Shown here piece by piece: positions 2,541-32,693 of a stretch of DNA of 64,000 nt. The position numbers were made by a program, and so were the translations under genes. Each line of letters starts with the position of its first letter. The first letter of the stretch is position 1. The notes below the pieces were generated by a model, which ran no database searches, was not told where the DNA came from, and saw only the letters and a list, made by a program, of their open reading frames with translations. The stretch is taken from assembly GCF_022846255.1 (NCBI RefSeq), contig NZ_AP025682.1. The stretch is one strand, 5' to 3'. This DNA comes from Escherichia coli (GTDB taxonomy: Bacteria > Pseudomonadota > Gammaproteobacteria > Enterobacterales > Enterobacteriaceae).

Positions 2541-4536
<1,996 letters not shown>

Positions 4537-31745: not shown

Positions 31746-31854
31746 ATATTCATCCCTGAAATGTATTAATGAAATAAACGATATTTTACGCGCAATAAAT
31801 GTTTGCCGCATTAGTTGTTTGAGCGAAAAATATCTGGAAAGCAGATCACAGTAA

Positions 31855-31939
31855 ATAAAAAAACCTGCTGGTGAGGCAGGTTCTTTTATTTACTATTTTC
31901 AGGCCTAACACCACAGCCTGTGCAACATCGTGTTCCAAC
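31855..31939 (-). ncRNA. Candidate antitoxin small RNA (OrzO-like), about 85 nt
   Basis: Minus-strand sigma70-like promoter (-35 TTGCAA at 31969-31974, 17-nt spacer, -10 TATAAT as complement of 31946-31951); intrinsic terminator (7-bp stem 31862-31868/31876-31882 followed by a U-run on the minus strand); 5' segment complementary to 32086-32105 of the toxin 5' UTR. Confidence 0.5.
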
Positions 31940-31945
31940 GAACGA

Positions 31946-31996
31946 ATTATAACCACGGCTGGACCCCGTTGCAATTAAGATAATGAGATTTATAAT
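31946..31996. promoter_or_regulatory. Divergent back-to-back promoters sharing one palindromic -35 hexamer (TTGCAA)
   Basis: Plus strand: TTGCAA (31969-31974), 16-nt spacer, TATAAT (31991-31996), predicted TSS about 32001-32004. Minus strand: the same TTGCAA read in reverse, 17-nt spacer, TATAAT (complement of 31946-31951). Confidence 0.5.
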
Positions 31997-32177
31997 CCAG
32001 ACCGTTGGGACGTTGCGCCGGATCGAACCTATTTCAAGTCCTGGCTACCGGACGGGTGGTGCTGCAGGTGGTGCCCTGATCCGGAGTGCAACATCGTGGT
32101 CCAACATACGTAAACCAGTATCGACAGGCAGTGTAAGGGTAAGGTGCTGGTGTTGCGCTCCTTAATAAGGAGAGCGG

Positions 32178-32267
32178 ATGGACACGCTGACACAAAAGTT
32201 AACCGTGCTCATTGCTGTACTGGAGCTATTAGTGGCTCTGTTACGGTTGATTGATTTGTTGAAGTAA
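32178..32267 (+). CDS. zorO: 29-aa hydrophobic type I toxin candidate (ZorO-like / TisB-like)
   Basis: ATG at 32178 preceded by SD TAAGGAGA (32166-32173); product MDTLTQKLTVLIAVLELLVALLRLIDLLK is a single amphipathic/hydrophobic helix with a basic C-terminus; predicted 5' UTR of about 174 nt; own terminator follows. Gene name assigned from memory of the Zor-Orz family, not verified. Confidence 0.6.
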   Translation: MDTLTQKLTVLIAVLELLVALLRLIDLLK

Positions 32268-32290: not shown

Positions 32291-32319
32291 GGGGGAATAC
32301 CGTTTCCCCCTTTAATAAA
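32291..32319 (+). terminator. Intrinsic terminator of the small toxin gene
   Basis: ggggga-ataccgtt-tccccc hairpin followed by tttaataaa. Confidence 0.6.
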
Positions 32320-32507
32320 GCTATACTCGCCATACTTCAAGTTGCATATGCTGCGACTTGAAGTATGATGAGTATATTATTCTATTTCTTGGTTGAATAT
32401 ATTCTGTAGTTCACAATTAAAAATTGCTATTACAGTTTCATGTGATTCACCTCGTAATTTCCGCTCATCAATAAACTCATCTCTTGTATAAATCAACGCA
32501 TCATTTA

Positions 32508-32693
32508 TTAGTGGTCGGCATCTTCTCGATCACGTTGATGAAATGTTGGATGTAGCCGGAATCGTTCCAGTCGATAGACGGAACCTGTAAATAATTCAGA
32601 GAATTTATGGATCTCAAGTCTGAAGGAAAACGGATCTTCAGGAGCAGGAACCTCATAATCGTAAATAGCAACCAGCTCTTTTTGCACGATCAT
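32508..32693 (-). CDS. Hypothetical small protein (61 aa); possibly a remnant or variant of the yehK-position gene
   Basis: ORF track 32508..32693; a 15-codon ATG-initiated frame immediately downstream of the yehI stop runs into it out of frame; no recognisable domain. Confidence 0.3.
   Translation of the reverse strand: MIVQKELVAIYDYEVPAPEDPFSFRLEIHKFSELFTGSVYRLERFRLHPTFHQRDREDADH

Follow-up and report, generated by a model that had tools for sequence, protein, structure and literature searches.

By sequence comparison, the locus between yehL and yehK/yehI in the 64,000-nt stretch of E. coli DNA analysed here (hereafter the window) is a zor–orz type I toxin–antitoxin module (Table 1). The minus strand of 31857–31932 matched Rfam RF02083 (OrzO-P) over the full length of the model at 99.9 bits (gathering score 60), and the yehL and yehK/yehI flanks were recognised from the open reading frame map together with the RefSeq annotation of matching regions in O157:H7, K-12, D8, E7 and NT1W22. 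The first description of the zor–orz system came from E. coli O157:H7 (Fozo 2010, PMC2887945), and two later studies characterised it (Wen 2014, PMC3919570; Wen 2017, PMC5397157). In EDL933, overproduced Zor is toxic, and the rescue by Orz depends on RNase III (PMC3919570). The O157:H7 locus has the same position between yehL and yehK/yehI, the same 174-nt leader, the same ribosome-binding site (RBS) and the same 29-aa open reading frame (ORF) as the window, and the sequence of O157:H7 zorP/orzP is identical to the window from the sRNA to the zor −10 element. EDL933 carries two tandem zor–orz copies, whereas the window has one. In the EDL933 nomenclature, the stretch 31855–32267 is a mosaic, which combines a sRNA, promoter core and leader of the orzP/zorP type with the ZorO peptide: the 29-aa product matches ZorO exactly, including Thr3, where ZorP has Ser3.

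Table 1 Features of the zor–orz locus (window coordinates)
Feature	Position	Strand	Evidence or remark
orz antitoxin sRNA, OrzP-type, ~83–85 nt	31855..31939	−	Rfam RF02083; EF541 5′ end; predicted fold
orz intrinsic terminator stem-loop, followed by a U-run to ~31855	31862..31882	−	Terminator scan, inverted repeat, Rfam structure
orz −10 TATAAT	31946..31951	−	−12..−7; invariant in 14/14 copies
orz promoter spacer, 17 nt, G+C-rich	31952..31968	.	Length constant, sequence variable; ACCA adjoining the −10 conserved
Palindromic −35 TTGCAA common to both promoters	31969..31974	.	−35..−30 for both; 13/14 copies identical
zor promoter spacer, 16 nt, A+T-rich in the P-type copy	31975..31990	.	GAGATT adjoining the −10 conserved
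zor −10 TATAAT	31991..31996	+	−13..−8; invariant in 14/14 copies
zor 5′ UTR, 174 nt	32004..32177	+	No indels relative to the O157:H7 zorP copy
Predicted Orz binding site in the zor UTR (+83..+103)	32086..32106	+	Direct repeat, RNA duplex prediction
zor RBS AAGGAG	32167..32172	+	Read from the sequence; agrees with the published RBS in sequence and position
zor toxin ORF, 29 aa, hydrophobic, MDTLTQKLTVLIAVLELLVALLRLIDLLK	32178..32267	+	ORF list; aligned to both O157:H7 copies
Putative zor terminator hairpin GGGGGAA...TTCCCCC, then TTTAAT	32291..32310	+	Read from the sequence; conserved in O157:H7

The published length of the orz transcript is about 80–85 nt, and the predicted Orz fold ends in a terminator hairpin, the 21-nt core of which is invariant in 14 of 14 copies. 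Around this terminator extends a longer palindrome (31850–31894; arms of 19 nt) that has T-runs on both strands and on paper could terminate transcription from either strand. At the DNA level, the predicted Orz binding site is a direct repeat of 31920–31944. Duplex prediction pairs 19 of the first 20 nucleotides of Orz with the zor UTR (6 bp, one mismatch and 13 bp), which reaches the pairing published as required for repression, namely 15 contiguous base pairs or 17 bp with one internal mismatch (PMC11264685); the published Orz target lies 72–92 nt upstream of the ATG. The putative zor terminator hairpin was not called by the terminator scan, its T-run being short.

Several features of the neighbourhood were observed alongside. 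The ATG of yehL (31745) lies 110 nt past the orz terminator, and both genes are oriented in the same direction. The promoter scan found no further consensus promoter between orz and yehL, so that read-through of the orz terminator could feed the yehL operon. On the other side, yehK (32377–32693, minus strand) carries a 1-bp deletion at about 32512 relative to K-12 and O157:H7 that splits it into ORFs of 39 and 61 aa; it is probably a pseudogene in the window, similar to yehK of strain D8, which is annotated as frameshifted. Between yehK and the terminator hairpin of zor, 32322–32376 holds an inverted repeat whose arms, 25 nt each and 88% complementary, are separated by a 5-nt gap. O157:H7 has this inverted repeat too; it may be a short enterobacterial intergenic repeat. 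The far end of the deletion found in K-12 MG1655 (L002 2501–2735 aligned with window 31800–32035) falls within the right arm of the inverted repeat; in K-12, the toxin gene is gone and orz, the shared −35 and both −10 elements are kept together with about 30 nt of the zor leader. Known as the ‘orz-only’ state (OrzPmg), this arrangement leaves the zor promoter as an orphan that aims into the 3′ end of yehK, in antisense orientation.

The two genes are transcribed divergently from promoters that are built around a single −35 element. Direct reading and the promoter scan agree that TTGCAA at 31969–31974 is its own reverse complement and is separated by 16 nt (31975–31990) from a plus-strand TATAAT and by 17 nt (31952–31968) from a minus-strand TATAAT, as the first-pass annotation had described. 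Its assignment of these elements to divergent promoters of the toxin (zor) and of the antitoxin sRNA (orz), which use one palindromic −35 in common, is borne out by the Rfam match and by published start sites. Primer extension has mapped the start sites of both zor mRNAs and both orz sRNAs in EDL933, and the zor leader is described as 174 nt long with the RBS at +164..+169. Transferred to the window, the published leader and RBS, together with the indel-free alignment to O157:H7, set zor +1 at G32004. The orz +1 was set at G31939 from the design of the cloning primer EF541, in which the AatII site stands immediately 5′ of GTTGGAAC and immediately 3′ of GGTTATAAT. The two start sites are 65 bp apart, which places TTGCAA at −35..−30 for both promoters. 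The mapped start sites thus lie 7–8 nt downstream of each TATAAT, in agreement with the first-pass annotation, which had named start sites elsewhere as an argument against its reading. In vivo activity has been documented by northern blots and primer extension in EDL933 and by a northern blot for OrzP in K-12; since the promoter core is identical to that of O157:H7, we take this activity to apply to the window as well.

In the promoter scan, the zor and orz promoters each agree with the consensus at 10 of 12 positions. The pattern TTGCAA-N15–18-TATAAT occurs twice in the 64-kb window, both times with the hexamer at 31969–31974, against 0.05 occurrences expected from shuffled sequences, and the complete 51-bp layout, with up to three mismatches allowed, occurs once against 0.06 expected. 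The arrangement of the three hexamers is far from chance. The two −10 hexamers are separate elements, 39 bp apart, and the −35 is the element held in common; the zor spacer (31975–31990) is at the same time the −36 to −51 region upstream of the orz promoter. No hexamer other than TTGCAA has the trinucleotide TTG in register on the two strands. As only this sequence offers the critical TTG in both directions, it is the natural solution for a −35 element read two ways. An origin of the two promoter arms by inverted duplication was considered and rejected: when the arms were compared, just TATAAT and GTTGGRAC aligned, and the alignment score of 17 was close to that of shuffles that kept the hexamers (14.8 ± 2.2, p = 0.17).

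For the analysis of conservation, copies of the locus were collected with an anchor that is independent of the promoters, the invariant 21-nt core of the orz terminator. This yielded 14 copies from six E. coli strains (including the window and the orz-only K-12), E. whittamii and two other Escherichia species; with only three non-coli Escherichia genomes recovered by the anchor scan, the phylogenetic depth of the set is shallow. The arrangement ATTATA-N17-TTGCAA-N16-TATAAT is exact in 13 copies, and none of the 14 has an indel in either spacer. Variable columns are found at 1 of the 18 hexamer positions and at 20 of the 33 spacer positions (Fisher p = 1e-4). The base composition of the spacers is retained: the orz spacer is G+C-rich in all variants (A+T fraction 0.24–0.53) and the zor spacer A+T-rich (0.50–0.81). 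A published survey of 2,439 loci reported conservation of 99.4% for the −35, 99.8% for the orz −10 and 100% for the zor −10 (PMC11264685). Judged from these comparisons, the hexamers and their spacings are constrained as promoter elements by purifying selection. Such constraint does not by itself indicate selection for sharing, because the two promoters could obtain separate −35 elements only through an insertion that rebuilt one at the same time. The sole changed hexamer, CTGCAA, was found in the middle one of the three copies of E. coli NT1W22 (L005 ~3755–3805). The substitution affects position 1 of the zor −35 and position 6 of the orz −35, and this copy thus offers a natural variant on which asymmetric use of the palindrome can be examined.

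As a sequence feature, the shared −35 is already known. Fig. 1A of Wen 2014 (PMC3919570) boxes the predicted −35 and −10 elements, and Table 3 of a 2024 mSystems study (PMC11264685) gives ‘−35 (TTGCAA)’ for Zor and Orz alike with identical percentages, as is expected if both entries refer to one hexamer; the −10 published for the two genes is likewise TATAAT. The first-pass annotation had remarked that the geometry was not emphasised for this locus. This is fair for the running text of the papers searched, which does not discuss it; the hexamer itself already stands in the cited figure and table. In the zor–orz papers searched, we found no text that terms these promoters shared, palindromic, bidirectional or interfering, and no experiment on promoter interference; the published functional work on zor–orz was done entirely with the heterologous PBAD and PLlacO promoters.

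The layout is moreover of an ordinary and recurrent kind. A scan of viral contigs for ATTATA-N16–18-TTGCAA-N16–18-TATAAT gave more than 120 matches, among which 80 loci (L012–L091) were examined. The 80 loci among the matches listed comprise 70 distinct cores in 59 sequence clusters. Among these listed matches, 73 arms have a 17-nt spacer, compared with 17 arms at 16 nt and 28 at 18 nt (p = 2e-10), and the 17/17 combination was observed 23 times against 6.6 expected. The extended −10 dinucleotide TG at −15/−14, which was not part of the search pattern, is present in 33% of the arms of the matches listed, against a background of 5.8% (p = 1e-19). Also among the matches listed, about 13–14% of the viral sites lie in divergent intergenic regions, compared with 1.7% of random positions, and convergent intergenic regions are avoided. 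As a control, we used matches centred on TTCGAA, a palindrome of equal composition (L132–L158), in which 17-nt spacers were not preferred (p = 0.15) and the TGn signal was missing, with TG on 2 of 40 arms. The raw counts (>120 for TTGCAA, 27 for TTCGAA) are not evidence, given that TTGCAA is about 4.5 times commoner in those contigs, and the inference from the viral sites is drawn only from the statistics on spacer length, TGn and genomic context. On these statistics, the double promoter with a shared TTGCAA appears to be a functional and recurrent design that is not peculiar to zor–orz. A literature search that paired TTGCAA with divergent or bidirectional promoters found no paper naming such a promoter class.

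Among characterised promoter arrangements, one close counterpart is the tail-to-tail class of Bendtsen 2011 (PMC3167631), made up of back-to-back promoters whose reverse start site is at most 80 bp upstream of the forward one; the 65 bp of zor–orz lie within this limit. The −40..+10 footprints of the two promoters overlap by 16 bp (31964–31979), from which an occupancy-dependent mutual exclusion would be predicted by analogy. The examples cited for this class include aroP P1/P3 and lambda PR/PRM (PMC3167631). The overlap at zor–orz differs from that of other tail-to-tail promoters in being exact and symmetric, with one hexamer for both. At lambda PR/PRM, the start sites are reportedly 82 bp apart, and both polymerases are said to be bound at once and to interfere at a later step. 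A second counterpart is the group of natural −10-sharing promoters (Warman 2026, PMC12825309), in which, as at zor–orz, a symmetric element can be bound by polymerase in either orientation, each binding event precluding the opposite one. These promoters share a pseudo-symmetric −10, whereas zor–orz shares the −35 with start sites 65 bp apart and falls outside the definition. The start sites of −10-sharing promoters are said to lie about 18 bp apart. ‘Separate promoters that are divergent’ were set aside as not clashing by the same authors (PMC12825309); with the categories divided in this way, the −35-sharing geometry of zor–orz falls between the two. Among toxin systems, tisB/istR-1 and shoB/ohsC resemble zor–orz in having a divergent sRNA that is complementary to the long 5′ UTR of the toxin over only about 18–21 nt. 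Their −35 elements are, unlike those of zor–orz, treated as separate sequences (PMC11264685), and tisAB is under LexA control, whereas zor has no LexA box.

Based on this geometry, we propose a hypothetical mechanism in which (i) Pzor and Porz act as two sigma-70-type promoters placed back to back, with transcription from Pzor starting at G32004 and running to the right through the 174-nt toxin leader, and that from Porz starting at G31939 and running to the left through the ~85-nt antitoxin sRNA; (ii) sigma region 4 of one holoenzyme at a time would sit on TTGCAA, making binding at the two promoters mutually exclusive; (iii) each promoter would be slowed by approximately the fraction of time for which its partner is occupied; and (iv) Porz, as the likelier more-occupied side, would partially damp toxin transcription, so that the known post-transcriptional repression would be supplemented by a modest transcriptional one. 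From the established structure of sigma region 4 on the −35 element, two holoenzymes should be unable to hold one hexamer together, and the first-pass annotation was on sound ground in this point. The asymmetry is expected because the spacer of Porz has the optimal length of 17 bp, the flank upstream of Porz is rich in A+T, and its product is abundant in growing cells, Orz sRNAs having been published as abundant in exponential phase. As both −10 elements are perfect and the spacers near-optimal, occupancy may suffice to matter, especially at Porz. An all-or-none switch is not expected, as no feedback or dedicated regulator is evident. We regard this reading, in which the shared −35 leads to mutual exclusion and a partial, asymmetric damping of Pzor by Porz and does not form a switch, as evenly poised between right and wrong.

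The quantitative expectation follows work on synthetic constructs, in which overlapping tail-to-tail promoters interfered in proportion to occupancy and not to strength (Bendtsen 2011, PMC3167631). In that model, a promoter loses at most the fraction of time for which its partner is occupied. As we read it, relative activity is given by (1+a1)/(1+a1+a2), where a1 and a2 are the occupancy-tendency ratios of the promoter itself and of its partner (PMC3167631); a weakly occupied promoter would accordingly fall by about its partner’s occupancy. Three sets of observations count against the damping. Promoter overlap need not mean interference, and one base change in a consensus −10 abolished it without lowering promoter strength (PMC3167631). 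Five of five natural −10-sharing promoters showed no polymerase competition at basal activity, competition becoming clear once one direction was strengthened (Warman 2026, PMC12825309). Supercoiling between back-to-back promoters can also couple them positively (Masulis 2015).

The first two of these sets equally favour the reading that the locus is a compact architecture with no regulatory effect, its promoters being too rarely occupied to compete and the sharing being a by-product of a short intergenic region. Overlap is indeed commonplace, as 314 of 2,281 E. coli promoters (~14%) overlap an opposite promoter (PMC3167631), and chromosomal zor expression has been published as very low, with ZorO undetectable when expressed in single copy from its native promoter. 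Against this stand the perfect TATAAT elements and near-optimal spacers, which bring zor–orz much closer to consensus than typical bidirectional promoters and into the ‘aggressive’ class of Bendtsen 2011, and the abundance of the Orz sRNA, which implies frequent initiation at Porz. We consider an absence of any regulatory effect a possible but somewhat doubtful explanation.

Positive coupling could also be the dominant effect, if the negative supercoils left behind a departing polymerase help the opposite promoter to open. Documented examples of this twin-domain effect among back-to-back pairs are ilvY/ilvC and leu-500, and divergent promoters of E. coli are responsive to inhibition of gyrase (Masulis 2015). 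The discriminator of the zor promoter (CCAGACC) is G+C-rich, which fits such coupling. G+C-rich discriminators often go together with sensitivity to supercoiling. However, at a distance of only 65 bp between the start sites, the −35 has to be free before the partner can bind, and in partly overlapping pairs 64 bp apart competition can outweigh the topological benefit (Masulis 2015). A dominance of topological coupling at zor–orz is thus very improbable.

The first-pass annotation had gone further and seen in the geometry a built-in switch, that is, a selected toggle in which initiation is either–or, cells flip between making antitoxin and making toxin, and the loss of one promoter strongly de-represses the other. 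Steric exclusion should be guaranteed by the geometry, the hexamers and spacings are invariant, the published fall of Orz in stationary phase would release Pzor, and polymerase interference alters cell-to-cell noise at PacrA/acrR (PMC12825309). A toggle would, however, need something to latch its state, and no feedback loop or regulator site was found in the sequence. Its maximal repression would be bounded by the occupancy of the partner, so that a switch would need an occupancy of at least ~90% in the model of PMC3167631, and the fact that the layout recurs in many phage contigs, in varied contexts, speaks for a compact design of a general kind and not for a device specific to toxin–antitoxin systems. 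The switch is consequently not supported as stated, as interference is bound by occupancy (Bendtsen 2011; Warman 2026), and we judge a selected toggle to be unlikely.

The sequence was also searched for a regulator site capable of making a switch out of the competition, and such a site was not supported. In 31900–32060, there is no CRP site with up to three mismatches and no LexA site with up to two. A Fur-like box, GATAATGAGATTTATAATC, overlaps the zor spacer and −10 at 31979–31997 and matches the consensus at 15 of 19 positions; it was noticed post hoc as one of three motifs tried, and 0.33% of spacer-shuffled promoters reach the same match. The box is present in all P-type copies and absent from O-type and other copies. 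In Fur ChIP-exo tables from nine strains, the peaks assigned to yehK/yehI (in W, KO11 and BL21 only) map beside metG, several kb away, and none of the peaks is assigned to the vicinity of yehL or falls in this intergenic region. A further Fur data set likewise contains no entry. Fur binding to the box in vivo is not supported by these data.

A bolder version of the proposal would have the shared −35 act as a device that partitions polymerase, each initiation event yielding either antitoxin or toxin RNA with an anticorrelation in single cells, and TTGCAA-centred promoters forming a distinct and widespread class. We think that this is improbable. If true, a drop in Porz occupancy, for instance in stationary phase or after a carbon shift, would release toxin transcription just as the antitoxin supply falls, rare toxin-ON cells would arise, and TTGCAA-centred double promoters would take their place as a bidirectional class alongside the −10-sharing one.

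In summary, our analysis describes a zor–orz module whose toxin and antitoxin promoters are arranged around one palindromic −35 hexamer. Damping of Pzor by Porz remains our preferred reading of this arrangement, at the even confidence given above. As things stand, the result is mostly a re-reading of published promoter annotation, and the mechanism is the standard expectation for overlapping promoters. If the competition is substantial, toxin control would gain a transcriptional level in addition to the known repression at the RNA level, and this may help to explain how a chromosomal type I toxin stays silent and yet is released in a few cells.
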